A DNA stretch of 64,000 nucleotides, from positions 188,017-252,016 of the forward strand of contig RDOB01000001.1 in the NCBI GenBank assembly GCA_011364965.1, written 5' to 3'. Below, in pieces: positions 41,339-57,836 of this stretch (position 1 is the stretch's first letter; the number at the start of each line of letters is the position of its first letter). The DNA is from Candidatus Heimdallarchaeota archaeon (GTDB taxonomy: Archaea > Asgardarchaeota > Heimdallarchaeia > Hodarchaeales > Hodarchaeaceae). Under the pieces are notes generated by a model. The model was not told where the DNA came from. It did no database searches and saw only the letters and a program-made list of their open reading frames with translations. Position numbers and translations under genes: made by a program.

Positions 41339-42286
41339 TTACGAACTAATGAACATTAAATCGTCATCTTCCTGCTTCACTTCCTTTAGAATTTGTTTAT
41401 ACCAATACCGTGTTAATCTTTCAACAATCTGGGTATGATATGGCCCTCCTTCAGCCCAAGACTTACGAGATTTACCGGGATGCTCAGGAAATTTCTGTTT
41501 CCAAATCAGTCTTTCAGGAACACCTTTGTCGCGATATTCTCTTAATTTTTCCAGATAAGCTTCCATCCAAGTTCTAATTTGAATTAGATAATCCTTTCCA
41601 ACCACTGGACCACGACTAGGAATAATTTTATCGATTTCTAGATCCTCCCATTTCCGATATAAACTTACACCAGTAATTGGCCACATAAAAGGAGGCATAA
41701 CACTTTGAATAACACTTCCTGCAAAAAGTGTCTTATCTGCACAGCAAAAGACCGAAATTCCTCCTGCTAAGGTCACCTCTAATTCAATGGGATAATTCAC
41801 ATCAAGACTGAGTTTCTTGATATTTGAAAATCCTGTTGTAGGAACAAAAATTTCATTTTTTAAAAGACTCTCATGTAGTTTATTGTCTTCTGGAATTTGA
41901 TGGATTATCCATTCGCGATATGAAGCATCTATTCCCTTTTTTATATTTGTACGTATTCCTGATTTTGTAGCAGAAGAACTCATAACTTCTACATCTTTGA
42001 ATGCATTCATTCCCCAAATAAACTCCCAAGATTTGCTAGTTAGGATCAAATGTGTCGTTTTTTTCTTAGTTAGAGATTCCATTTCTTTTCTGAAGGTCTT
42101 GGCAAGATCAGCGAAAGGAGTACAATTCACAAAAATTAACTCATTAGAAAGGATAATACAACTCATATTTGAATACAAATATGGTCTAATTAGCTTATCT
42201 GTCTCCTCCATCATTATTGCAGTCATAATAATGTTTGGCGTTATTTCAATGTAGTTTAGATCTGTTACCATAAAATTACACCTCAT
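41339..42286 (-). CDS. Metallo-beta-lactamase-fold protein lacking its metal ligands
   Basis: Motif order retained: IFVNC, LILTSKSWEFIWG, TLFAGSVI, KIIPSRGPV. Confidence 0.7.
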   Translation of the reverse strand: MRCNFMVTDLNYIEITPNIIMTAIMMEETDKLIRPYLYSNMSCIILSNELIFVNCTPFADLAKTFRKEMESLTKKKTTHLILTSKSWEFIWGMNAFKDVEVMSSSATKSGIRTNIKKGIDASYREWIIHQIPEDNKLHESLLKNEIFVPTTGFSNIKKLSLDVNYPIELEVTLAGGISVFCCADKTLFAGSVIQSVMPPFMWPITGVSLYRKWEDLEIDKIIPSRGPVVGKDYLIQIRTWMEAYLEKLREYRDKGVPERLIWKQKFPEHPGKSRKSWAEGGPYHTQIVERLTRYWYKQILKEVKQEDDDLMFISS

Positions 42287-45153
42287 TAATTCCTAAGATA
42301 TTCCTTGAGATACTGCCCAGTGAAAGATTTCTTTACTTTGCATATTTCTTCTGGCGTTCCTGAGGCAACAAGATATCCTCCTTCACTCCCACCCTCAGGA
42401 CCAAGATCAATGATATAATCAGCCATTTTAATGATATCGAGGTTGTGTTCAATCACAATGACGCTATTTCCGTTATCAATGAGCTTATCAACGGTAAAAA
42501 GGAGTTTCTTGATGTCAGCTAGATGAAGTCCAATTGATGGTTCATCAAAAACATAGAGATTGTGTTCATGCCGTTTCAGTTTGCCCAATTCATTTGCTAA
42601 TTTTATTCTTTGCGCCTCTCCTCCGCTAAGAGTAGTAGAAGATTGACCAAGCTTTAAATAGCCGAGTCCAAGATCATCCATGACCTTTAATTTGTAATAG
42701 ATTAAACGCACATCTTTAAAAATAGCCAGTGCTCTCTCAACAGAGAGGTCTAGGGTATCAGCGATGCTATAGCCTTTATACTCAATCTCTAGGATCTCAG
42801 CTTTAAACCGTTTTCCTTTACAGACAGGGCAAATTGTCCGGACATCAGGCATAAATTGAAGTTGTGTCACAATTTCACCTGTTCCTTCACACTCATCACA
42901 TCTACCAGAATCTTTTGAATTATAACTAAAAGTAGATTTATTATAGGCACGATTCTTAGATTCGGGGAGATTTGAGAAAATATCTCGGATTTTATCATAA
43001 ATGCCAACAAATGTAGCGGGATTAGATCGAGAATTTCTTCCAATGGGAGATTGATCCATGATTCGTATATCTTTAATAAAATCTAATCCAATTATTTCAT
43101 CATGTTTTCCAGCAGTAACCCTACGATCTCGAAAACGTGAAATGAGTGCATTAGTTAATATGTCATTGACTAAACTACTCTTACCAGATCCTGACACTCC
43201 CGTAACACAGACCAAAACGCCAAGAGGAATTTTTACATCGATTTTTTTAAGATTATTCTCAATTGCGCCAAGAATTGTGATATAATCACCATTTAACGGA
43301 CGCCTCCGTTTGGGAATTTCAATAATTTTCTTTTTTGAGAGATACTGACCTGTGATCGATTCAGGAGTATTTTTAATATCCTCTACTGTGCCTTTAGCTA
43401 CAATTTCTCCGCCATAATCTCCTGATCCTGGGCCTAAATCTAAAATCCAATCTGCAGCCTCCATCATCTCAGTATCGTGTTCTACAACAATTACTGTATT
43501 TCCAATGTCTCTGAGTTTCTTAAGTGTTGTAATGATGCGGAAATTATCTCGTTGATGGAGTCCAATACTTGGTTCATCTAAGATATAAAGCATTCCCATT
43601 AATCCAGATCCTATTTGAGTAGACATCCTCACACGCTGAATTTCCCCACCTGATAAAGTATGAGCATTCCGATTCAAGCTAACGTAACTTACACCAATCT
43701 CGCAAAGAAGATCTAATCGTTTTTTGAGCTCCTCAATTATTGGTTCCTCAATGTGTTTTCGGCCTTTCTCAATAACTAAAGTATCTAAGAAAGAACGAAG
43801 CTCAGCTAATGTCATTTCCCCTAACTCATGCAAATTCTTTCCGTTTAAACGTACCAATAATCTCTGGGAAAGAAGCTTGGTTCCTTGACAGTCAGGACAA
43901 ACGACATTTGTCATACCACGGAAATAAATATGATCATCCATGGTTCTTGCAGATCGACGCGCCTCATTTCGGACACGCTCCTTATACCAACGATTAATGG
44001 GGGGAATAAGACCTTCAAATGCGACTTTTTTTCCAACATTAGAGAAAGTGTGCTCTAGATCTTTAGGTTGTATCAGAACAAATTTCTCTCCTTGGGTTCC
44101 ATAAAAGATTATATCTTGATTTTTCGGATCTAAACTTTCAAAAGGGGTATCTAGACTAAAATTATAATGTTTTGCGAGACTATAGATAACTAAATACTTA
44201 AATGGGTGATCTAAATTGAAAATATTCTCATTAATTGCTCCATTACGAATACTTTTCTTTTCATTCACTATAATCAGTCTTGGAACTGCTCTTCGATATA
44301 CTCCAAGTCCACGACAAGTTAAACAGGCACTATCTCCCTCATTTGGAGAGAAATACCAAGGTAAAAGTTCACCCATTACTAGATGATGGATTGGACATGT
44401 AAAGTCCTGATAGAATGATTGAAAATTCACAGTTTCTTCAGGAATATGAATTTTAATGTAACCTTCTCCGATTCTCTGACATTCACGGATCGTATCTAAC
44501 ATATTCTGGTGAAGATCAGAATTAACTTCGAATTTATCAATGAAAGCTTCTATCTGGTAAGTTCTCTGTTCATCGAGATCTATCTGTTCGCCCACATCAT
44601 ATTCTTGACCATCAATACGAATCTTTCCAACTCCTCGCCTTCTCAGAGTATCAAACAAGTACCGATAATCCTCGTCGTAGATTTTGAATACTGGAGCATA
44701 TATTTCTACCATTGTATCTTTAGAAAGAGAAAGTAATTTCTCAACTATCTGGCTAGCAGTTTTTACAGAGACCTCATGCTCACAATAAGGACAGTATGCT
44801 TGGCCTTTAGTAGAGTAGAGAAGTCGAAGGTATGTAGATACATCCGTTAGGGTTCCAACAGTTGAACGATAATTCCGTAAACTCTGATGTTGTTCGATGG
44901 AAACAACAGAGGATAAACCAAATATAAAATCTACATCAGGTCTACGAACTTGAATAACTCGTGATCGAGCATATGTAGATAATGATTCGAGGAATAATCT
45001 CTGACCTTCACCAAAGATCACATCAAACGCAAGACTAGATTTGCCAGAACCACTTACTCCAGTTACAACAGTTAACTTATTCCGAGGGATTTCGACATTG
45101 ATGTTTTTTAGATTATTTTGACGGGCTCCAATTACTTCAATTGTGTCTCTCAT
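42286..45153 (-). CDS. Divergent UvrA-family ABC ATPase
   Basis: GARQNNLKN, two GVSGSGKSSL, LSGGE twice, DEPSIGLH twice, CxxC Zn modules. Confidence 0.93.
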   Translation of the reverse strand: MRDTIEVIGARQNNLKNINVEIPRNKLTVVTGVSGSGKSSLAFDVIFGEGQRLFLESLSTYARSRVIQVRRPDVDFIFGLSSVVSIEQHQSLRNYRSTVGTLTDVSTYLRLLYSTKGQAYCPYCEHEVSVKTASQIVEKLLSLSKDTMVEIYAPVFKIYDEDYRYLFDTLRRRGVGKIRIDGQEYDVGEQIDLDEQRTYQIEAFIDKFEVNSDLHQNMLDTIRECQRIGEGYIKIHIPEETVNFQSFYQDFTCPIHHLVMGELLPWYFSPNEGDSACLTCRGLGVYRRAVPRLIIVNEKKSIRNGAINENIFNLDHPFKYLVIYSLAKHYNFSLDTPFESLDPKNQDIIFYGTQGEKFVLIQPKDLEHTFSNVGKKVAFEGLIPPINRWYKERVRNEARRSARTMDDHIYFRGMTNVVCPDCQGTKLLSQRLLVRLNGKNLHELGEMTLAELRSFLDTLVIEKGRKHIEEPIIEELKKRLDLLCEIGVSYVSLNRNAHTLSGGEIQRVRMSTQIGSGLMGMLYILDEPSIGLHQRDNFRIITTLKKLRDIGNTVIVVEHDTEMMEAADWILDLGPGSGDYGGEIVAKGTVEDIKNTPESITGQYLSKKKIIEIPKRRRPLNGDYITILGAIENNLKKIDVKIPLGVLVCVTGVSGSGKSSLVNDILTNALISRFRDRRVTAGKHDEIIGLDFIKDIRIMDQSPIGRNSRSNPATFVGIYDKIRDIFSNLPESKNRAYNKSTFSYNSKDSGRCDECEGTGEIVTQLQFMPDVRTICPVCKGKRFKAEILEIEYKGYSIADTLDLSVERALAIFKDVRLIYYKLKVMDDLGLGYLKLGQSSTTLSGGEAQRIKLANELGKLKRHEHNLYVFDEPSIGLHLADIKKLLFTVDKLIDNGNSVIVIEHNLDIIKMADYIIDLGPEGGSEGGYLVASGTPEEICKVKKSFTGQYLKEYLRN

Positions 45154-46089
45154 TTAACTTTCTCCTCCAATATAATATATAGTTGTCTCATCTACCGTAG
45201 TTCGACTTCTAGCTGTAATTCTCTTGGGTTTCATCCCGATTATTAAGACACCCTGATCCTTAAGCCAGTTGATGGACTCAACCAATGTTAAATTAGGAAG
45301 GCCAGTTGCTTTCTTGAAATAAAGATCCAGTTCAGAATGAGTTCGCTCTCCAAGACTTTCCTTAAGATACTCGAATAGAGGTTTATAAAAAATCTCAATA
45401 TTGTCTATTAGAAACTCATTTATAAGAGTTAAAGCATATTCAACGCTTTCCCTTGACAACCCTTTCTTGAATACGTTAGTTATGATATTATCAATGATTT
45501 TATTTGCTGAAACTTCCTGGGCCTGAGTTAGAATGTCTCTACCTGGAATTTTTCCCTCAAGAAAGATCAAAATTCGTGCAATATCTTGAGTTGCCAGAAA
45601 AAGCCAATTAAAGCTCTTTTCGAGTGATTCTTCAATGTAGAGTGTCTTCTTGAGTTTATAGATCGCTCCTACTAGCATTTCAGAACGCAATAGGATTTGC
45701 AGCTCTTTATCCCTTTCTGCAACTCTAAACATGTCTCGATTAAACTCTGAAATCCCTCTATCAGCTGAATGTATTAATTTACTTGTAGAGAGCATATGAT
45801 GAGTTATACTCCCCTGAAGAAATCTCTGCTGATTCCGACGATAATCATTTCGAGAGATGACATAAGCATTGATATTTACGTCATTTTCTCGTACAACTAT
45901 CAAATCTTGAAGAACTCGTTCCTCATTTGTTACAATCACTATATCAATATCCGATTTTTCCCATATAATCCCATTAATATAACTACCAAGAACAAAAACA
46001 GCGAGTATACTATTATCAGATTTAATTCTGTTTAGAAATAACTCGAGAGCTGTATCAAACTTCTGACGTAGATTTGCATCTTCAACCAA
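45154..46089 (-). CDS. Pol-beta-superfamily nucleotidyltransferase with helical domain and wHTH-like tail
   Basis: VLGSYING..WEKSDIDIVIV (GS..DxD). Confidence 0.85.
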   Translation of the reverse strand: MVEDANLRQKFDTALELFLNRIKSDNSILAVFVLGSYINGIIWEKSDIDIVIVTNEERVLQDLIVVRENDVNINAYVISRNDYRRNQQRFLQGSITHHMLSTSKLIHSADRGISEFNRDMFRVAERDKELQILLRSEMLVGAIYKLKKTLYIEESLEKSFNWLFLATQDIARILIFLEGKIPGRDILTQAQEVSANKIIDNIITNVFKKGLSRESVEYALTLINEFLIDNIEIFYKPLFEYLKESLGERTHSELDLYFKKATGLPNLTLVESINWLKDQGVLIIGMKPKRITARSRTTVDETTIYYIGGES

Positions 46090-46122
46090 ACTAGTTCCTC
46101 CGGCTAAATGAAGAAATTAATT

Positions 46123-46171
46123 GTCTAGTAAAAGAAAATCTCTCCTTTAAAAAGAGAGGATTTCTCTAGAC
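46123..46171. promoter_or_regulatory. Long imperfect hairpin just upstream of the NTase-UvrA-like operon
   Basis: GTCTAG..AGAAAATCTCTC / GAGAGGATTTCT-CTAGAC. Confidence 0.45.
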
Positions 46172-46423
46172 GACAAATAAAAGGGTAAATTCTCCTCAAT
46201 AAAAGTATTTTTTTCGTGGCAAGCCGGAGGAAATTTGATTGCCAATTTAAGAAAATACTAAACCAATTTTGGCTAATTCAGACAATTTAAATTGAGTAAA
46301 TTAAAAAAAACTTTACATATATAGATTTCGGTAAAGGTAATATATTAACTTCAAAAAATACTAGGAGAGTAGATCACGCAATTCACATCTAGAATTTTAT
46401 CAGTTAATATCTCAAAAAGTGGA

Positions 46424-47194
46424 CTAAATCAATTTTATTAAACGACCAAAACCAGTGCTCAATTGTAATGTCCCTTGATAAGAGGATGTTTTTCCAAACT
46501 CAACCCGAATACGATCCCCTAGCTTTACTTGAGCAATCTGTTCATTCCAAAATACAAGTACAATATCCCCAGAACTATCCTGCAGTATTGCATTAGCAAC
46601 AGTCAGTATTTTACCGTCTCTTTTGGATTTTACCTCTCGAGAGGGATCTAAATGGACAACTTCTCCCTCAACAAGTACTTCAGTCATACCTTCCCTTAAA
46701 GACCTAATAGTAGCAATCTGTGTAGGATTACCACGCTGAAACCAAATAAACTTACATTCAAACCCATGAACCCACCCAATATGGACAAAACCTAGTTTCT
46801 CATAGAACTGGCAGGTTCGAGCATTCCAAACAGGAGTGTCTAAGGTCCAAACAGTTTCAGGATATTGATGAAACAGAAGAGGCATAAGCTGAGTTGCAAT
46901 ACCCTTATTATGATACTCTGGGTCAATAAAAATTCGCTTAAGTATAAAACGGCCTTTCTTTCGAGAGTTGAATAAAAGTCCTCCGATGATTTGATTTTGA
47001 TAAAGGATTTTAAGGTAATCAAAGACCTTCATGTACTATAGCTGTGATTTGACCGAATTATAACCAATAAGACCCCCATTAAGGCTGAGAGGGCCATCTA
47101 ATCCAAAATCTGCGTGAAATGCTGCTTTAAATAATTTAATTAGAATTTCTGTGTCCTCAAGGGTGGTTTGAATAAGTTTGACATTAAGAGACAT
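46424..47194 (-). pseudogene. GNAT acetyltransferase fused to an RPA/SSB-like OB fold, interrupted by an in-frame TAG at 47036-47038
   Basis: ATG 47194 reads MSLNVKL..GYNSVKSQL*YMKVFDY in one frame; RIFIDPEYHNKGIAT, FYEKLGF, LQDSSGDIVLVFWNEQ. Confidence 0.75.
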
Positions 47195-49808: not shown

Positions 49809-50459
49809 TCACTCAACCCAAGAGATGAGCATTTCATAAGAGGTGACACCAATGTTTCTGTGGCCTTCAACGAATTCTGGGGTGAAGTGTACAAGTGTTG
49901 GCATATGAGTTATTCGTAATTTAACTGACATATGGTACTTATCATGAAGAACTATCCACGATATATTGTTTATGGTCACGAAATTATTTAATTCATCAGT
50001 CGATTCTTCTGAAAAAGAAACTACAACTATATTTGGAGAATCGATAACAAAATCTTTAAGAATTTCAACCTGCTGTTTACAGGGTATACAATAAGTTCCC
50101 ATATAATCCAATATTATATGTTTTCCTTTGAACTGAATCAGATCTAATGTGCTTCCAGAAAGATCTTGAAAAATATATCGTCCTGAAACATCACTATCTG
50201 GATCACTCGGTTGACTTGTATTAACATTATCAGCAAAATAAATCATAGGAATAGCCAATACGAGTAGAAATACTGGAATTATGACGTAAATTCTGTTAAA
50301 TGACTTGGGTTTGACCTTTAATATCTCATTGTCTCTTTTTTGCGTTTTTACTCTTACTCTGTCAATTTTCTTTATAACTTGATCAATATCATCATTTGTC
50401 TGACTGATAGCTAATTTATGGTTTCTTCGTCGTCTTTGACTCATTTTATTCCACACCAT
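49809..50459 (-). CDS. Membrane-anchored TlpA/ResA-like thioredoxin
   Basis: TM segment, then LDYMGTYCIPCKQQ and cis-Pro motif HMPT. Confidence 0.85.
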   Translation of the reverse strand: MVWNKMSQRRRRNHKLAISQTNDDIDQVIKKIDRVRVKTQKRDNEILKVKPKSFNRIYVIIPVFLLVLAIPMIYFADNVNTSQPSDPDSDVSGRYIFQDLSGSTLDLIQFKGKHIILDYMGTYCIPCKQQVEILKDFVIDSPNIVVVSFSEESTDELNNFVTINNISWIVLHDKYHMSVKLRITHMPTLVHFTPEFVEGHRNIGVTSYEMLISWVE

Positions 50460-50758
50460 GATTAATTAAAGTCTGATTTCTACTCACTAGTTACTTCATG
50501 TCTTAGTAATCAGTTTTGCCATGTATTGATTGTTTTTTCACTAAATAATCATTAAGATTACTTTCATTAGTTGGAAAGCATATATCAAATGAAATCTTCG
50601 AAATATCAGCATTTTTTGCCAATCGAATTGCTTATTAACAAATTACGCAGGTTCTTCGACAATTTTTTTAGTCTACATCTACTGATATCCATCCACAGCA
50701 ATCACAGCTTTCATTGAAGAAATTTGGAGCTTTATTCATACAAGAATGCATGTTTTTG

Positions 50759-50806
50759 TCATATTGATGTATATCGATTTAAATACATATCGATAGATTG
50801 ACAACT
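50759..50806. promoter_or_regulatory. Tandem ATATCGA..TCGATAT boxes, candidate ArsR operator copy 1
   Basis: Gapless alignment (30 of 48 nt, hand count) to the reverse complement of 53137-53184. Confidence 0.65.
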
Positions 50807-50887
50807 ATCGAAATCATTTTAACATATCCTCAAAATAGCACTTCAAAAATGATTGTTTCTTAAAAAAGGCATACAAGGACGGAATTA

Positions 50888-51610
50888 TTGTTAAAAATGT
50901 TATTTTCAAACTCCAAAACTATCAAGCAAACAACTATTGAAATAATTTTATTATTTTGTTGCTTCTTTTACTTCTACCAAACCTATGAAAATATCTACAT
51001 TTCAAGGGGAGTTGTTATTGTAGATCGCGCAGATGGTGCTTATCCTGTTCTTTGGTGCAAATACATCAACGAAGGAGACAATCTTACATATCAGATAGAC
51101 TCTATTAAATCAGATGAGGAAATTGCTTTTGCTAAAGGTGATTATATTACTGGTTCAATTGGAGACCTCCCAGAAAAAGTGGATAGTGGATTTCATGCAA
51201 ATTTAGTCTCAGATTTTAGACATAAAGGTACAAATATTTCATCAGAGGTAGTACCACCAATTATTGTCCCCCATAAAATCTTTCGAGCCTGTTGTAACAC
51301 TTATAAACCCCTAACCTACCAACTAAAAGATTGGGGATGGAAAAATTTCTATCTATTAACAGAAAAAGCAAACGAATTCATACTATCTTATGCAGCACCT
51401 TCGTTAGATGCAACCATTATTTATAACTTAGAAGGAGTTGCTTTATCCTTTAATGCAACTTTAGCAAATTTTAATTATTCAGCGCAACTTATTACTCCGC
51501 TTCAGATAACTACTTCTTCACAAAGGTTCTATACTACTCCTTGGTACTTTTCCATGAATCTGATTAGCCTCTTTTTCATAATCGCTAAAATGAAGGGATC
51601 CTCTTTATGA
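50888..51610 (+). CDS. Secreted or membrane-anchored hypothetical protein with a vicinal Cys pair
   Basis: Hydrophobic segments at both termini; RACCN. Confidence 0.6.
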   Translation: MLKMLFSNSKTIKQTTIEIILLFCCFFYFYQTYENIYISRGVVIVDRADGAYPVLWCKYINEGDNLTYQIDSIKSDEEIAFAKGDYITGSIGDLPEKVDSGFHANLVSDFRHKGTNISSEVVPPIIVPHKIFRACCNTYKPLTYQLKDWGWKNFYLLTEKANEFILSYAAPSLDATIIYNLEGVALSFNATLANFNYSAQLITPLQITTSSQRFYTTPWYFSMNLISLFFIIAKMKGSSL

Positions 51611-51954
51611 ATATGTTGAATTACAAAATAAACATTGATCAAAGTTTAGTAACAAAAATTAAACCTGATTATGGGCTTTTAGTCAAACTCAAGAAAACTA
51701 CGAGCTGCTGTAGCATACTTGTTGAACCAGATGTTGAACAGCTTTCATTAGATAAGATATTATCGTTGGAACAAGATGGAAGTGTGATTTTAGTTGATGA
51801 GAACAATATTACAATAGCAATTGAAAAAGAGGTTTTCAAAATTTATCCTGATTATAAAAATCTCGAAATAAATCTATGTGGCATTTTAATTAAGAAACCT
51901 CATATTAATCTTCCTGTTGAACTAATTGAAAAGGACAGATGTTCAAATGAGTGA
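51607..51954 (+). CDS. Small CC-motif protein (HesB/IscA-like fold suspected)
   Basis: TTSCCS motif; overlaps both neighbours. Confidence 0.55.
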   Translation: MNMLNYKINIDQSLVTKIKPDYGLLVKLKKTTSCCSILVEPDVEQLSLDKILSLEQDGSVILVDENNITIAIEKEVFKIYPDYKNLEINLCGILIKKPHINLPVELIEKDRCSNE

Positions 51955-52627
51955 TCTGATATTACTACCCTTAGCTTATATGGCTGGAATTGTTTCCTTC
52001 ATTGGACCATGTCATCTAGCGATGATTCCCATCTTTATTTCTTATCTTTTGGCTAATAAGGATCAAGGATGGTTAAATGGGATTTTAATTGGATGTGCTT
52101 ATACTTTGGGTCTTGCAATAACATTTTCTTTCTTCAATTTTGTGCTACAATTGTTTCCTGAAGCAATTTTCTATTTACCAGTCTTTCGTATAGGTGCAGG
52201 CTTACTGGTGATGACTCTAGCAATAGGCCTTTTAGTTGGATATGATTTTGGGACATCCAAGTTATCAAAATCTGAACTTTTAGAACATCTCTCTAAAAAA
52301 TTTAATCTTCTCGGATTCGGATTATTTGGAATAATTTCTGGCCTCGCCTGGATTCCTTGCTTAACCCCAGTTTTAGCAACTATATTAACTATGATTTCTC
52401 TCAACCAAGATTTCTTATCCGGTTATCTACTTCTTTTCATATATGCATTAGGGCTTGGATCCCCCTATATTGTAATCAGTACTCTTGGTATTCAGATTAA
52501 AAGTACTACACTTGCTCAATGGGTGAAATATGGCATTTGGATCCAACGAGGGTTGGCAATTCTTTTACTCGGATTTGGATTGGTAATACTTTTAGATGGC
52601 GTAAATTTATATCAAATATATCAATAG
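51947..52627 (+). CDS. ccdA: CcdA/DsbD-type transmembrane electron transporter
   Basis: AGIVSFIGPCHLAMIP, WIPCLTPVLATIL, YALGLGSP. Confidence 0.92.
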   Translation: MSDLILLPLAYMAGIVSFIGPCHLAMIPIFISYLLANKDQGWLNGILIGCAYTLGLAITFSFFNFVLQLFPEAIFYLPVFRIGAGLLVMTLAIGLLVGYDFGTSKLSKSELLEHLSKKFNLLGFGLFGIISGLAWIPCLTPVLATILTMISLNQDFLSGYLLLFIYALGLGSPYIVISTLGIQIKSTTLAQWVKYGIWIQRGLAILLLGFGLVILLDGVNLYQIYQ

Positions 52628-52711
52628 CTTTTGTGTCTTAAGGGGAAAAATTTAAGACCCCCTAGTAAGGAAAGAGTAAATCTTTTCTTTATTTATAACA
52701 ATCAAGCTAGT

Positions 52712-53104
52712 TCAGTTTTGAAAGTTAATAAACGAATCTAGAAATGCTTTGTTTTTAATTGAAAGGAAAGTTCTCTTTCCTTCTCTGGTTCGTGTTATTA
52801 ATTCTGCATCCTCTAATAAGGAAAGATGATGTGAAACAGTTGCTTGAGCAAGATTGGTAATATATTCAATTTCACAGGGACAGGTTACGCCATTACTTAT
52901 AGCTAATAATATTTGTATTCTCACTTCGTTATTTAAAGCTTTTATTTGCTTTTTTAATGCTATAAACTGTGATTGCCTAGTTAATAGGTTAAGTCGCTTT
53001 TTAAGAAGCTTTATCTCCTCTACTCGGTCAGAGACAGATTTCCATGAGACCAGCTCTTCCTCTAGTAGATCTTTTAATTTTTCTTCGAGTACAGAACCTG
53101 ACAT
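52712..53104 (-). CDS. arsR: ArsR/SmtB family repressor
   Basis: KALNNEVRIQIL, TCPCEI, QATVSHHLSLLEDAELI. Confidence 0.9.
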   Translation of the reverse strand: MSGSVLEEKLKDLLEEELVSWKSVSDRVEEIKLLKKRLNLLTRQSQFIALKKQIKALNNEVRIQILLAISNGVTCPCEIEYITNLAQATVSHHLSLLEDAELITRTREGKRTFLSIKNKAFLDSFINFQN

Positions 53105-53136
53105 TTCAGTAGATCAGAGTCCGAATTGGATTATAA

Positions 53137-53184
53137 ATATTTCGATTTGTCGATATGTTTATATATCGAAGCTTTTCGATATAT
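53137..53184. promoter_or_regulatory. Candidate ArsR operator copy 2 in the arsR/permease divergent promoter
   Basis: Perfect inverted repeat ATATATCGAA-GCTT-TTCGATATAT (53161-53184) plus an adjacent imperfect box, overlapping TTTATATA. Confidence 0.75.
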
Positions 53185-53217
53185 CAGTTAGAAAAATGCC
53201 CTTGAAGGAATCTTAAG

Positions 53218-54603
53218 ATGGCTGGCATTGTATCAATAATTCAAGGAGCACTAGAAAGTGCTCTTATTACTCTACTAGATTATCTTTCTTTGCATGTTCT
53301 GTTATGTCTTATTCCGGCCTTTTTTATTGCAGGAGCAATGGCCTATTTTATTCCCAAAGATGTCATTACTCGCTATATGGGGAAGGATGCAGACCCTAAA
53401 ATAGCATATCCAATGGCAACAGCAGGTGGGTTTCTCTTAGCAGTCTGCAGTTGCACAGTATTACCTTTGTTTGTAGGAATTTGGAAGCGTGGAGCTGGAT
53501 TAGGCCCAGCAATAACATTTTTATTCGTTGCTCCAGCAGTTAATATTTTAGCTTTAACATACACTGGTACATTAATTGGAATGGATATTGCAATCGCAAG
53601 AGGCGTTTTAGCGATCGTTTTTGCAATTTCAATAGGATTGATTATGGCCAAAGTCTTTGGAAAAGAAATAAATTCAATTAATTCCCATTATAATGACCCT
53701 AGTACTATATCAGTCTCTGCAAAACCACTAAATGAGGTAATTAATGATGAACCAAGAGTAGGGTTCCCTACAATCGATATCATCCTGATACTTGGATTAG
53801 GCCTTTGCTCACTTCTACTTGCTACATTGGATTCCAATATGATAAGAATTATTGGGGAGAGTTTCTTTTTGGAAACACCCATAGTGAATCTTGTTTTTCA
53901 GACTCCCGCCTTACTTCAAACTTTTATTTACTTGATAGGTTTGTTTATCCTTGTGATGATAACATACAAGATTTCAAGTAAAGAATTGAGATTATTTCTT
54001 TGGTTAATCTATGTACTAATGACAGGAACCTCTCAAATCACGTACTTCACAGAGGATTTAACTATATTTGGACTTCTTATAATTCCTGCTATTAGTAATA
54101 TGGTTATCAAAGTTATACTAACAAGTATAGTAGCTTTGGGGGTGTTAATATATGTTTGGAAGCTGTTTGAGAAGGTAGACGTGAATGCTTGGATGATGGA
54201 GACATGGATTTTTATAAAATCAATTTTCCCATTAATAATTAGTGGAGTCGTAATTGCGGGGTTTGTAAGATTTTTTATACCTCCTGAAATTATTGTTGGA
54301 TTAGTAGGCAGCAATACTGTGCTTGCAAACCTTATTGGTGTGTTATTTGGGGTATTAATGTACTTTCCAACATTAATGGAGGTTCCTGTTGCTCGAATAT
54401 TCTTAGACCTAGGTATGGCACGCGGGCCATTATTAGCTTATCTCTTAGCTGATCCTGAGTTATCCTTACAAAGTATTTTGGTTACCCGTAAGTATCTAGG
54501 TGATCGAAAGAATACTGTGTATATAATACTTGTAACTATTGTCACAACCATCTCAGGATTAATATTTGGATTCTTTTTAGGTCAAGGAATTGGTTTATGG
54601 TGA
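53218..54603 (+). CDS. ArsP/DUF318-family permease
   Basis: HVLLCLIPAFFIAG, LAVCSCTVLPLF, PAITFL, MYFPTLMEVP. Confidence 0.88.
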   Translation: MAGIVSIIQGALESALITLLDYLSLHVLLCLIPAFFIAGAMAYFIPKDVITRYMGKDADPKIAYPMATAGGFLLAVCSCTVLPLFVGIWKRGAGLGPAITFLFVAPAVNILALTYTGTLIGMDIAIARGVLAIVFAISIGLIMAKVFGKEINSINSHYNDPSTISVSAKPLNEVINDEPRVGFPTIDIILILGLGLCSLLLATLDSNMIRIIGESFFLETPIVNLVFQTPALLQTFIYLIGLFILVMITYKISSKELRLFLWLIYVLMTGTSQITYFTEDLTIFGLLIIPAISNMVIKVILTSIVALGVLIYVWKLFEKVDVNAWMMETWIFIKSIFPLIISGVVIAGFVRFFIPPEIIVGLVGSNTVLANLIGVLFGVLMYFPTLMEVPVARIFLDLGMARGPLLAYLLADPELSLQSILVTRKYLGDRKNTVYIILVTIVTTISGLIFGFFLGQGIGLW

Positions 54604-54637
54604 ATTAGAACTAAGTTATCATTTGAGGTTTTAAAAA

Positions 54638-55690
54638 ATGAGTACAACAAAAATTGTAACAGAAGAAATGTCTATATTAGACAAATTCCTCCCTTTATTA
54701 ATAATTGGAGCCATGGTTCTAGGATTATTCATGAATCGATTAGTACCCAATATTCAGGATATTTTTAGCCAAGTACAAATCGATACAGTTTCGCTCCCTA
54801 TCGCCATAGGTCTACTCTGGATGATGTATCCAGTATTAGCTAAGGTACAGTATGAGAAAATTCCTCATGCACTCCAAGAATATAAGCTCTTTGGTACATC
54901 ACTTGTTCAAAACTGGATCATTGGCCCGATTTTTATGACATTCCTAGCATGGGTATTCTTAGCGAATTATCCAGGGTATCGAGAGGGAATAATCCTTGTT
55001 GGATTGGCACGTTGTATTGCGATGGTTCTAATTTGGAATATGCTGGCTGGAGGAGATGCAGAGAAATGTGCTATCCTTGTAGCTCTTAATAGTGTTTTTC
55101 AAATTTTCTTTTATGCCATTTATGCTTGGATATTCATTGGGATAACGAATATCAACATATTAGATATTGCCCGAAGTGTCTTTATTTTCTTAGGAATCCC
55201 TTTAATTGCTGGTTTCTTAACCAGGGAAATATTAAGGCGACAGAAAGGAGAGAATTGGTATACTAGTGTCTTCATTCCGAAACTTGGACCAACAGCTATC
55301 ATTGGTTTATTATTCACAGTGGTAGCTATGTTTTCTATGCAGGGAGAGAAAATTCTTGGCCAACCATTAGATATCTTAATAATTGCTATTCCTCTCTTCA
55401 TCTACTTCATTGGAATGTTCCTAATAAGCTTTCTAGTCTCATTTCTCCTAAAGTTTAGGTATCCTGAAACAGTTACCCTCTCATTTACAGCTGCCTCAAA
55501 TAATTTTGAACTCGCTATCGCGGTCGCTATCGCCACTTTCGGGATCAATTCAGATCAGGCGTTAGCTACTGTTGTCGGGCCTCTGATCGAGGTACCTGTA
55601 TTATTATTATTGGTGTATCTGGCTCTTTGGCTTAAGCAATATCTTTTCAAGACTGAATTGCCAAGTCCTCAACCAAGTCGTATTTCGTGA
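54638..55690 (+). CDS. acr3: Acr3-family arsenite efflux transporter
   Basis: MMYPVLAKV, GLARCIAMVLIW, SNNFELAIAVA, VVGPLIEVP. Confidence 0.96.
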   Translation: MSTTKIVTEEMSILDKFLPLLIIGAMVLGLFMNRLVPNIQDIFSQVQIDTVSLPIAIGLLWMMYPVLAKVQYEKIPHALQEYKLFGTSLVQNWIIGPIFMTFLAWVFLANYPGYREGIILVGLARCIAMVLIWNMLAGGDAEKCAILVALNSVFQIFFYAIYAWIFIGITNINILDIARSVFIFLGIPLIAGFLTREILRRQKGENWYTSVFIPKLGPTAIIGLLFTVVAMFSMQGEKILGQPLDILIIAIPLFIYFIGMFLISFLVSFLLKFRYPETVTLSFTAASNNFELAIAVAIATFGINSDQALATVVGPLIEVPVLLLLVYLALWLKQYLFKTELPSPQPSRIS

Positions 55691-56138: not shown

Positions 56139-57836
56139 TTAATAGATTCTTTTAACACGCAATTCAGAACCAGAATTTATCACCACTAGTCCATCAACGG
56201 TACCAGAGTCAGAGATGATAAAGTTTACGTCTATAATAGTCCCCGTTCCTAGGTGATAACCTGTGAATTCCCTTTCTGATTTGGGCATAAGTAAAATCGA
56301 ATAGGTTACCGGAAAAGCCCCTGTAATTTCGGTAATCCCTATATCGTTCCAGTAAAACCGATAATATTCAAGTTCTTGATCGAATTTGATGACGAATGAT
56401 GTAGAAGCCGTGTCCGGGGTCTCTAACCACCATATTGGAGTCGTTCCTATGATCTGATAACCTGTACATCTTCTCCGGTTATTAGCTGAAATGAATTTCT
56501 TCTTTAACAAGAAAACCTTAAAGTTCTCAAACCGATCTTTTTCAGCCAGAAAGTCCTTGAAATATTTGTAATTATCATTTAAAATTCCTTCCACGATGGT
56601 CTCCGTTTTTTTAGAAAGCTCATCATATAGAAGACTACTTCTCTTTGAAGAAACAAGTAGATTAACTGCTTCCTGTCCGATAGCCTTCACCCTTAGCTTA
56701 TTATTGATGATATCCACAGTAAACTTGTCACCAGAAGGAAACAAATAAACTCCCGTATATCGATCTAAAAAATTGTTTTCTACCCAGTAGCAGTTGTTTG
56801 GTGGTAATGAAAAAATGGCTGTTTTGTCTAAAATCAGCTCTTGTAGTTTGATTTTCATAACATCAGCTAAGTATATGTTATCAATCCATCTATTGCATAG
56901 CAAGATGGTTATCACGTCTTTATCCACAAACCAGCTAGCGTCACAACTGAAACCGAGGTAATTTGCACCATCATGACCTCTTATCAGACCATATTTAGTT
57001 GAATTAGTGATTTCCCATCCATAAGCATAATCATCCAGATAAGGTGTCCACATTTTCTTTTTGGATGTTTCTGAAAGTATTTTCCTACCTTTCAAAGCCA
57101 AAAACCACTTGAATAAATCACCAATCGTTGTACAAACTCCTCCACTGCCAATATGCGGCCAAGATGGCTCTGGCCAAGTTCTGGGTGAACCATTGTCTAC
57201 TTTACCTGTATAAGCGTGAGCAATTCTGTTGATATCCCACGAGGTATCACCGTACCACCCAGTATTCGTCATGTCAGCGGGAATAAATACGTTTTGAGTC
57301 ACGTACTTTCTAAAAGACTGACCCGTGAGCTCCTCGATAATAATTGCTAGCAAAGAATAGCTAGGATTAGAATAATTGAAGCTCTTCCCTGGTTCTGCGA
57401 GAAGTTTCGATTCGAGGACTCCCTTGATAAAATCACTCTGGTCGTAGAAATCAAAGTCACCACCATAAAACCGTGGTAATCCCGATGTGTGACTTAATAG
57501 GTGATGGATGGTAATAGATCTTTTATCAGCAGGAATCGTAAGGAAATTGCTGATAGGATCACTGGTTTTCAAAAATCCTTGCTCCTCAAGTTGGAGAATC
57601 GCAGCTACAGTGAATTGCTTGCTTATCGATCCAATATCGAAAATAGTCTCAATAGTGTTACGAATGCGTTTTTTGACATTTGCATATCCGTACCCAGAGT
57701 AGAGATAAGGTTGATCACCTTTAGCAATAAGAACAGTTCCAGAAAAACCGAAATTCACAACTCTAGCGAGGTAATTATTGGCAATGGAACCTGTTTTTCC
57801 ATGGATTATGCTACAATCTCGGGAGAGCATTAACAC
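56139..57836 (-). CDS. Serine hydrolase of the beta-lactamase (AmpC-like) family with C-terminal extension
   Basis: GSISKQF (SxxK), LLSHTSGL, YSN, HDG. Confidence 0.9.
   Translation of the reverse strand: MLMLSRDCSIIHGKTGSIANNYLARVVNFGFSGTVLIAKGDQPYLYSGYGYANVKKRIRNTIETIFDIGSISKQFTVAAILQLEEQGFLKTSDPISNFLTIPADKRSITIHHLLSHTSGLPRFYGGDFDFYDQSDFIKGVLESKLLAEPGKSFNYSNPSYSLLAIIIEELTGQSFRKYVTQNVFIPADMTNTGWYGDTSWDINRIAHAYTGKVDNGSPRTWPEPSWPHIGSGGVCTTIGDLFKWFLALKGRKILSETSKKKMWTPYLDDYAYGWEITNSTKYGLIRGHDGANYLGFSCDASWFVDKDVITILLCNRWIDNIYLADVMKIKLQELILDKTAIFSLPPNNCYWVENNFLDRYTGVYLFPSGDKFTVDIINNKLRVKAIGQEAVNLLVSSKRSSLLYDELSKKTETIVEGILNDNYKYFKDFLAEKDRFENFKVFLLKKKFISANNRRRCTGYQIIGTTPIWWLETPDTASTSFVIKFDQELEYYRFYWNDIGITEITGAFPVTYSILLMPKSEREFTGYHLGTGTIIDVNFIISDSGTVDGLVVINSGSELRVKRIY

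Follow-up and report, generated by a model that had tools for sequence, protein, structure and literature searches.

UvrA is the entry point of prokaryotic nucleotide excision repair (NER) and, to our knowledge, none of its partners other than UvrB and Mfd is well understood. The present analysis deals with a UvrA paralog encoded next to a nucleotidyltransferase (NTase) in a 64,000-nt stretch of the genome of a Candidatus Heimdallarchaeota archaeon (contig RDOB01000001.1). This whole stretch is hereafter called the window, and all coordinates are positions in it. Three open reading frames (ORFs), all on the minus strand and closely packed as one transcription unit, occupy positions 41339-46089: the NTase (45154-46089, 311 aa), the UvrA paralog (42286-45153, 955 aa) and ORF3 (41339-42286), predicted to have a metallo-beta-lactamase (MBL) fold. 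We regard the NTase-UvrA pair as a probable, hitherto undescribed module for DNA surveillance or for the response to genotoxins; literature searches yielded no description of such a pair.

Some UvrA paralogs are already described. Class IIa UvrAs are devoid of the UvrB-binding domain and of Zn module 1 (PMC9328131). One of them, Ecm16, protects against a DNA-binding drug and needs none of UvrB, C and D to act on the drug-bound DNA (PMC9328131). By analogy, Ecm16 is a functional precedent for a UvrA acting outside NER. A preliminary description of the locus had likened the window UvrA to DrrC; the likeness may hold for the function, in view of Ecm16, but not for the architecture, since the paralog keeps both the UvrB-binding domain and Zn module 1, in altered form, and is thus not a class IIa UvrA.

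The architecture of the paralog is that of class I. It scores 1095 bits on TIGR00630 (cut-off 729.8) and 1125.7 bits on NF001503, i.e., under the cut-off of 1147. Its residues 2-953 align to 9gxk, and the match to the solved class I UvrAs is end to end. The Walker A, Walker B and signature motifs are intact in both ABC modules. The three Zn modules, the insertion domain and the UvrB-binding domain are found in the canonical order (matches to PF17760 and PF17755). It must be noted that Zn module 1 is of the CCCH type, the fourth Cys being replaced by His in 13/13 clade representatives. The paralog thus retains all that is needed for dimerisation, DNA binding and ATP hydrolysis.

The phylogeny is different. 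A tree of 36 UvrAs was calculated (quick LG+G4 search, small canonical sample, class II copies as outgroup). The 22 NTase-linked UvrAs form a single clade (Shimodaira-Hasegawa-like approximate likelihood ratio test, SH-aLRT: 100; stem 0.4), and the canonical copies make up a separate group (96), to which the window UvrA does not belong. In the same manner, it is 46-54% identical to NTase-linked bacterial UvrAs vs. 43% to the canonical copy of its own genome. It had been called a divergent UvrA-like protein: it is indeed a member of a separate paralog clade, but with its full class I alignment and its score on TIGR00630 it is more than UvrA-like. The paralog is class I by architecture, not by phylogeny or by partner domain.

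The linkage of the two genes is conserved across domains of life. UvrA lies directly downstream of the NTase in 67 of the 68 NTase loci with enough flank (genome loci pooled with those of an independent metagenome scan), with a median gap of about 27 nt; L155 is the sole exception. The linked loci are distributed among Heimdallarchaeia, Bacillota, Poribacteria, Abditibacteriota, unclassified metagenome-assembled genomes and metagenomes; Paenibacillus sp. MBLB4367 is a carrier in culture. In distant Heimdallarchaeia, the NTases of which are 23-35% identical, UvrA also follows the NTase directly. The same result is obtained from the UvrA side. In 41 relatives, where NTase-type UvrAs were recognized by identity (at least 51%, vs. 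at most 46% for canonical copies), all 14 NTase-type UvrAs with flanks adjoin an NTase, and two more are at contig edges. Among the longer proteins no NTase-UvrA fusion was found, which is weak evidence.

The distribution is less regular. Within the same genus, 10 of the 21 other genomes have a full-length NTase match (E<1e-100) and two more a weaker or partial one. In Poribacteria, a phylum of sponge symbionts (G052-G200), the NTase is present in roughly 130 of the 151 sampled genomes, usually in a fused double form of about 630-660 aa. In another Heimdall genus (L121, G027:C196, 1543-7109, minus strand), the UvrA paralog, an alpha/beta hydrolase (Abhydrolase_1, 4e-24) and a 626-aa fused double NTase follow one another with gaps of 20 and 0 nt. 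The pair is best read as a patchily distributed, horizontally spread two-gene module, accessory to normal UvrABC.

Two observations can be added on the integrity of the pair. At two bacterial loci a foreign gene lies between NTase and UvrA, i.e., an AAA_21/AAA_15 ATPase (L055:6931-8052) and a Phd/YefM antitoxin (L057:7930-8172). An apparent decayed second copy is seen in another genome (G037:C34:15593-19377), where an N-terminal piece of UvrA, interrupted by a stop, is beside fragmented NTase-like ORFs.

The source genome (2.97 Mb, 87% complete) has its own housekeeping NER genes. A second UvrA, with 1350 bits, is located on contig C9, together with uvrB, uvrC and a short UvrC-like gene. The window indeed contains neither uvrB nor uvrC, as first noticed, and its UvrA is not the only one of the genome. 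A higher-scoring canonical UvrA was also found in every other pair-carrying genome checked. In the loci examined, the pair never adjoins uvrB or uvrC. The proposal of a system outside NER is thus supported by the separate housekeeping set, but only in part: uvrB is present in 38 of the 41 relatives (10/10 of the high-quality genomes), and therefore a hand-off to UvrB is possible.

The domain that would receive UvrB was compared between the NTase-linked clade (13 representatives) and canonical UvrA (7 representatives). The UvrB-binding domain (about residues 125-250 of the paralog) has 24% identity between the clades, vs. 59-60% for the ATPase domains. The fraction of canonical-invariant residues kept in the NTase-linked clade is 0.37 in this domain vs. 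0.63-0.85 in the other domains; conversely, the fraction of residues invariant in the NTase-linked clade and kept in canonical UvrA is 0.32 vs. 0.59-0.91 elsewhere. This low retention in both directions means that constraint still acts on the domain, but that another surface is conserved. FKIYGEDY is read in place of the canonical RGRKGE. The canonical-invariant Arg (position 217 of the window UvrA), which we take to be a residue contacting UvrB, is Gln or Asn in most of the NTase-linked clade, and the presumed UvrB-contact surface is not conserved on the domain. These substitutions suggest that the UvrB-binding domain is re-specified and has changed its partner. The distances between NTases were also correlated with those between UvrB-binding domains, the ATPase domains being controlled: the partial r is 0.42, vs. 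0.17-0.31 for the other domains. Because the pairs are not independent, the co-divergence of the NTase and the UvrB-binding domain is suggestive only.

These data bear directly on the possibility of a specialised NER branch, in which the paralog would still load UvrB and UvrC at particular lesions, the NTase being an accessory (e.g., for end processing or site marking). The class I architecture is complete, and PF17760 recognizes in it a domain of the UvrB-binding type; these features, the score above the TIGR00630 equivalog cut-off and the wide presence of uvrB are all in line with such a branch. Nevertheless, only in the UvrB-binding domain are the canonical conserved residues lost, the invariant Arg included, the clade is distinct, and the pair is never beside uvrB or uvrC in the examined loci. 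We consider this branch rather unlikely.

The second protein of the pair consists of a Pol-beta NTase domain (about residues 1-120), a helical domain (about 125-245) and a C-terminal winged helix (about 250-306). The Pfam Polbeta match is short (5e-8). The AlphaFold2 (AF2) model, calculated with a 65-sequence alignment, has a pLDDT (predicted local distance difference test) of 94. Among the 65 homologs, G35 and S36 are invariant and S46, D47, D49, D110, K145 and K148 are at least 90% conserved; with its catalytic residues conserved, the NTase is active-looking. The best Foldseek match is 3c18 (TM, template modelling score, 0.69/0.73), followed by KNTase/ANT(4') (kanamycin nucleotidyltransferase; TM 0.58/0.69) and then by other antibiotic nucleotidyltransferases. 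The family profile also finds 3c18 in PDB (8.7e-14, residues 40-281). Thus, the homology to the YgxA-like NTases (3c18; PF22339) covers the NTase and helical domains, with weak PF22339 matches that occur only in relatives L054 and L121. The modelled fold suggests that the NTase O-nucleotidylates a small molecule.

Two groups of NTases can be set aside: (i) on the aminoglycoside model NF012212, i.e., ANT(9), the protein reaches 19.5 bits (cut-off 340) over residues 25-58 only; (ii) on NF047752, for the MntA/MNT antitoxins (HEPN-MNT, type VII toxin-antitoxin), it reaches 18.9 bits (cut-off 60), and its neighbours are UvrA and the MBL-fold gene, with no HEPN toxin at the locus.

In the fused tandem double NTases, the SDID motif is found in one half only, the other half having SNIN or SDIN. 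This suggests a KNTase-like functional dimer with selection on catalysis. The NTase is acidic (mean net charge −8.9; −1.8 for the last 65 residues), the winged helix included, and its recognition helix is not basic. It is thus unlikely, from this overall charge, that the NTase binds DNA directly.

The NTase is also found fused to other domains. Three N-terminal architectures were observed: (i) extracytoplasmic function (ECF) sigma regions r2+r4 (P0019, P0031); (ii) sigma plus ankyrin repeats (L054, 4846-6939); (iii) an AraC helix-turn-helix (P0040, L136-L140). All these fused NTases retain the catalytic motif, and L054 and the AraC forms are then followed by the UvrA paralog. For P0040, the plasmid matches that were obtained concern the AraC domain only and were discarded. 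In one lineage an ArsR-GyrI/Cass2 regulator overlaps the NTase start, and a separate, adjacent AraC gene was also observed. The lineage-specific accessories (ArsR-GyrI regulator, alpha/beta hydrolase and the dead MBL protein of the window) are of the small-molecule kind, with which the adjacent AraC gene and the AraC or ECF sigma fusions can be ranged.

The fusions make it conceivable that the NTase-winged-helix protein is mainly a regulator, which would tell the transcription machinery in what state the UvrA paralog is or that a ligand is bound. The AraC-N-terminal layout mirrors that of Rob-type regulators, and some of the fused forms precede the UvrA paralog. However, a DNA-binding domain of this kind is missing from most NTases, that of the window included, the acidic winged helix has no basic recognition helix, and catalytic residues as strongly conserved as these would be needless for a pure sensor. 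A role mainly in transcription control is therefore judged improbable.

ORF3 has no match in Pfam. Its AF2 model (pLDDT 84) shows the alpha-beta/beta-alpha fold of MBL proteins and matches 6uxu (TM 0.72/0.74) and also 8d2z and SPM-1. When ORF3 is aligned with the paralogs that pass PF00753, SKSWEF stands in place of the HxHxDH motif, and Ile, Ser and Arg in place of the three metal ligands that follow (His, Asp and His). With these metal ligands lost, ORF3 is, by its modelled fold and its motifs, an MBL-fold pseudoenzyme, and the first assignment as a catalytically dead MBL-fold protein is borne out. Wherever a same-genus locus leaves room for it, ORF3 accompanies the pair; it is absent from the loci of all other lineages. 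In the G011 genome, a divergent copy of the locus keeps all three genes (identities of 51% for the NTase, 73% for UvrA and 42% for the MBL-fold protein), and the closest ORF3 ortholog of that genome (69%) stands alone on another contig. ORF3 is thus read as a genus-specific add-on. The three-gene module initially proposed is reduced to a conserved NTase-UvrA pair, which is joined by the dead MBL gene in this one genus of Hodarchaeales.

The reading we prefer is that of a genotoxin or lesion response, separate from NER or feeding into it, in which UvrA scans and the NTase nucleotidylates; we hold it with moderate confidence, at about even odds. The mechanism, which is inferred, would be as follows: (i) the UvrA paralog would scan DNA for a lesion class or a DNA-bound toxin; (ii) the NTase, as a dimer, would be its dedicated partner, probably held via the re-specified UvrB-binding domain; (iii) in the way in which KNTase modifies aminoglycosides, the NTase would nucleotidylate a hydroxyl group of the harmful small molecule or of the adduct; (iv) in the lineages with ECF sigma- or AraC-fused NTases, the same partner would also link detection to transcription; (v) in this genus, the system would have gained a metal-free MBL-fold protein, the most likely role of which is to bind a ligand or to serve as an adaptor. 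More tentatively, and with less confidence than for the response itself, it may be proposed that the NTase took the place of UvrB on UvrA, so that the scanner would have a second output: the lesion or toxin would be tagged by nucleotidylation instead of being excised, the fused forms giving a direct transcriptional response.

Several results weigh against the preferred reading. The net charge of the UvrB-binding domain is −9.7 in the NTase-linked clade vs. −1.5 in canonical UvrA; this domain and the NTase being both acidic, a charge complementarity is not obvious. The docking of the NTase at the UvrB-binding domain is deduced from sequence statistics with 7 canonical representatives. No conserved neighbours beyond the pair were found across the lineages examined, and the pair was not found on plasmids, unlike typical drug-resistance genes. 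Moreover, a sister NTase-winged-helix subfamily from Caloramator-group Clostridia (L066, L069, L071-L074, L076, L077) has a different conserved neighbourhood and no UvrA paralog, the five genomes checked having canonical UvrA only. It was considered that such UvrA-less NTase homologs had no C-terminal domain; this was ruled out, as none of their length is missing and their winged helix is present in a divergent form.

An anti-phage or anti-plasmid defence system made of an ABC ATPase and an NTase, a role also raised in the preliminary description, is highly improbable and was left without support: it would agree with the patchy distribution and horizontal spread, the weak matches between the NTase and the cyclase and PDC models of PADLOC, the PADLOC match of the UvrA C-terminal half to mad3 (3e-82) and the defence-type insertions at two loci (AAA_21 ATPase; Phd antitoxin), but the mad3 match is generic UvrA homology over one ATPase half (residues 633-949), with no other component of a MADS system among the neighbours, the NTase matches have E values of only about 1e-3 to 1e-4, the neighbours are ribosomal, tRNA-modification, redox and arsenic genes, the pair is not found on plasmids and it is nearly universal in Poribacteria, unlike most defence systems.

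If a widespread UvrA clade does have a re-specified partner domain and an enzyme as its obligate partner, the DNA-damage scanner would have been re-used for a different chemistry. This would open a new way to study the response of cells, among them those of sponge symbionts and of the eukaryote-related Asgard archaea, to particular lesions or to natural products that bind DNA. Finally, a role would be assigned to the uncharacterised YgxA-like NTase family, for which a structure (3c18) is solved.

The junctions between the three genes are tight. The TAA of the NTase (45156-45154) abuts the ATG of UvrA at 45153, as had been seen, and the Shine-Dalgarno sequence GGAGGAG for UvrA sits within the NTase 3' end. 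The NTase itself has a TTG start six bases 3' of GGAGGA. The overlap reported between the UvrA stop and the next ATG exists, TAA (42288-42286) sharing one base with the ATG at 42286 (TAATG), but the start of ORF3 is more likely the second ATG, at 42271, because AGGTG precedes it and the orthologs show a gap of 17-20 nt after UvrA. The length of ORF3 is 315 aa if it is translated from the overlapping ATG, and 310 aa if translated from the second one.

Upstream of the NTase, a block at 46191-46230 (minus strand) is nearly invariant across 8 orthologous upstream regions, with variable flanks. Its A-rich/TATA-like core (about 46199-46214) makes it the putative archaeal promoter of the operon. In the 5' leader of the NTase (46090-46170, minus strand), a conserved UCCUCC could pair with the nearby GGAGAG or with the Shine-Dalgarno GGAGGA; no covariation support for this pairing was found with RNAalifold. 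A hairpin followed by a T-run in the leader had the look of an attenuator; this was rejected, the paired fraction being 68.8% vs. 67.2% in shuffles, i.e., no better.

In the window, the pair is located between ribosomal and tRNA-modification genes on one side and a redox/arsenic cluster on the other, with no defence island. The upstream gene on the same strand (46424-47032, minus strand) codes for a fusion of a GNAT acetyltransferase domain (residues 9-87) with an RPA/SSB-like OB fold (residues 105-195); it is unusual for a DNA-binding fold to be combined in this way. The redox/arsenic-type cluster (49809-55690) contains a thioredoxin-like protein, a DsbD-type membrane protein, an ArsP permease and an SBF/ACR3-like transporter. 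A gene of the serine beta-lactamase family is found at 56139-57836.

The comparison of the pair with the known systems can be summarized as follows. The YgxA-like protein 3c18 of Exiguobacterium sibiricum is the best profile and fold match of the NTase, over nearly the full length; nevertheless, their identity is about 14%, and 3c18 is an uncharacterised «nucleotidyltransferase-like protein». ANT(4') (1kny, 6un8) shares with the NTase the NTase and helical domains, the GS...DxD motif and the conserved Lys of the helical domain, and the tandem pseudo-dimers of the NTase family are consistent with a KNTase-like dimer, as in ANT(4'). On the contrary, the NTase has an extra C-terminal winged helix, its sequence match to the ANT families is not significant, and it is chromosomal, none having been found on plasmids. 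The class IIa UvrAs (DrrC, Ecm16, UvrA2 of D. radiodurans) are, like the paralog, UvrA paralogs that coexist with a canonical UvrA. However, their structures 2vf7 and 7sh1 give far weaker matches, starting at residue 267 or 378, and an NTase partner is not described for them. The class I UvrAs (TIGR00630; 9gxk, 2r6f/3uwx, 3zqj) have the same length, domain order, intact ABC motifs and Zn modules as the paralog, but the latter belongs to a separate clade, coexists with a higher-scoring canonical copy, has a Zn module 1 of the CCCH type and has an obligate NTase neighbour.

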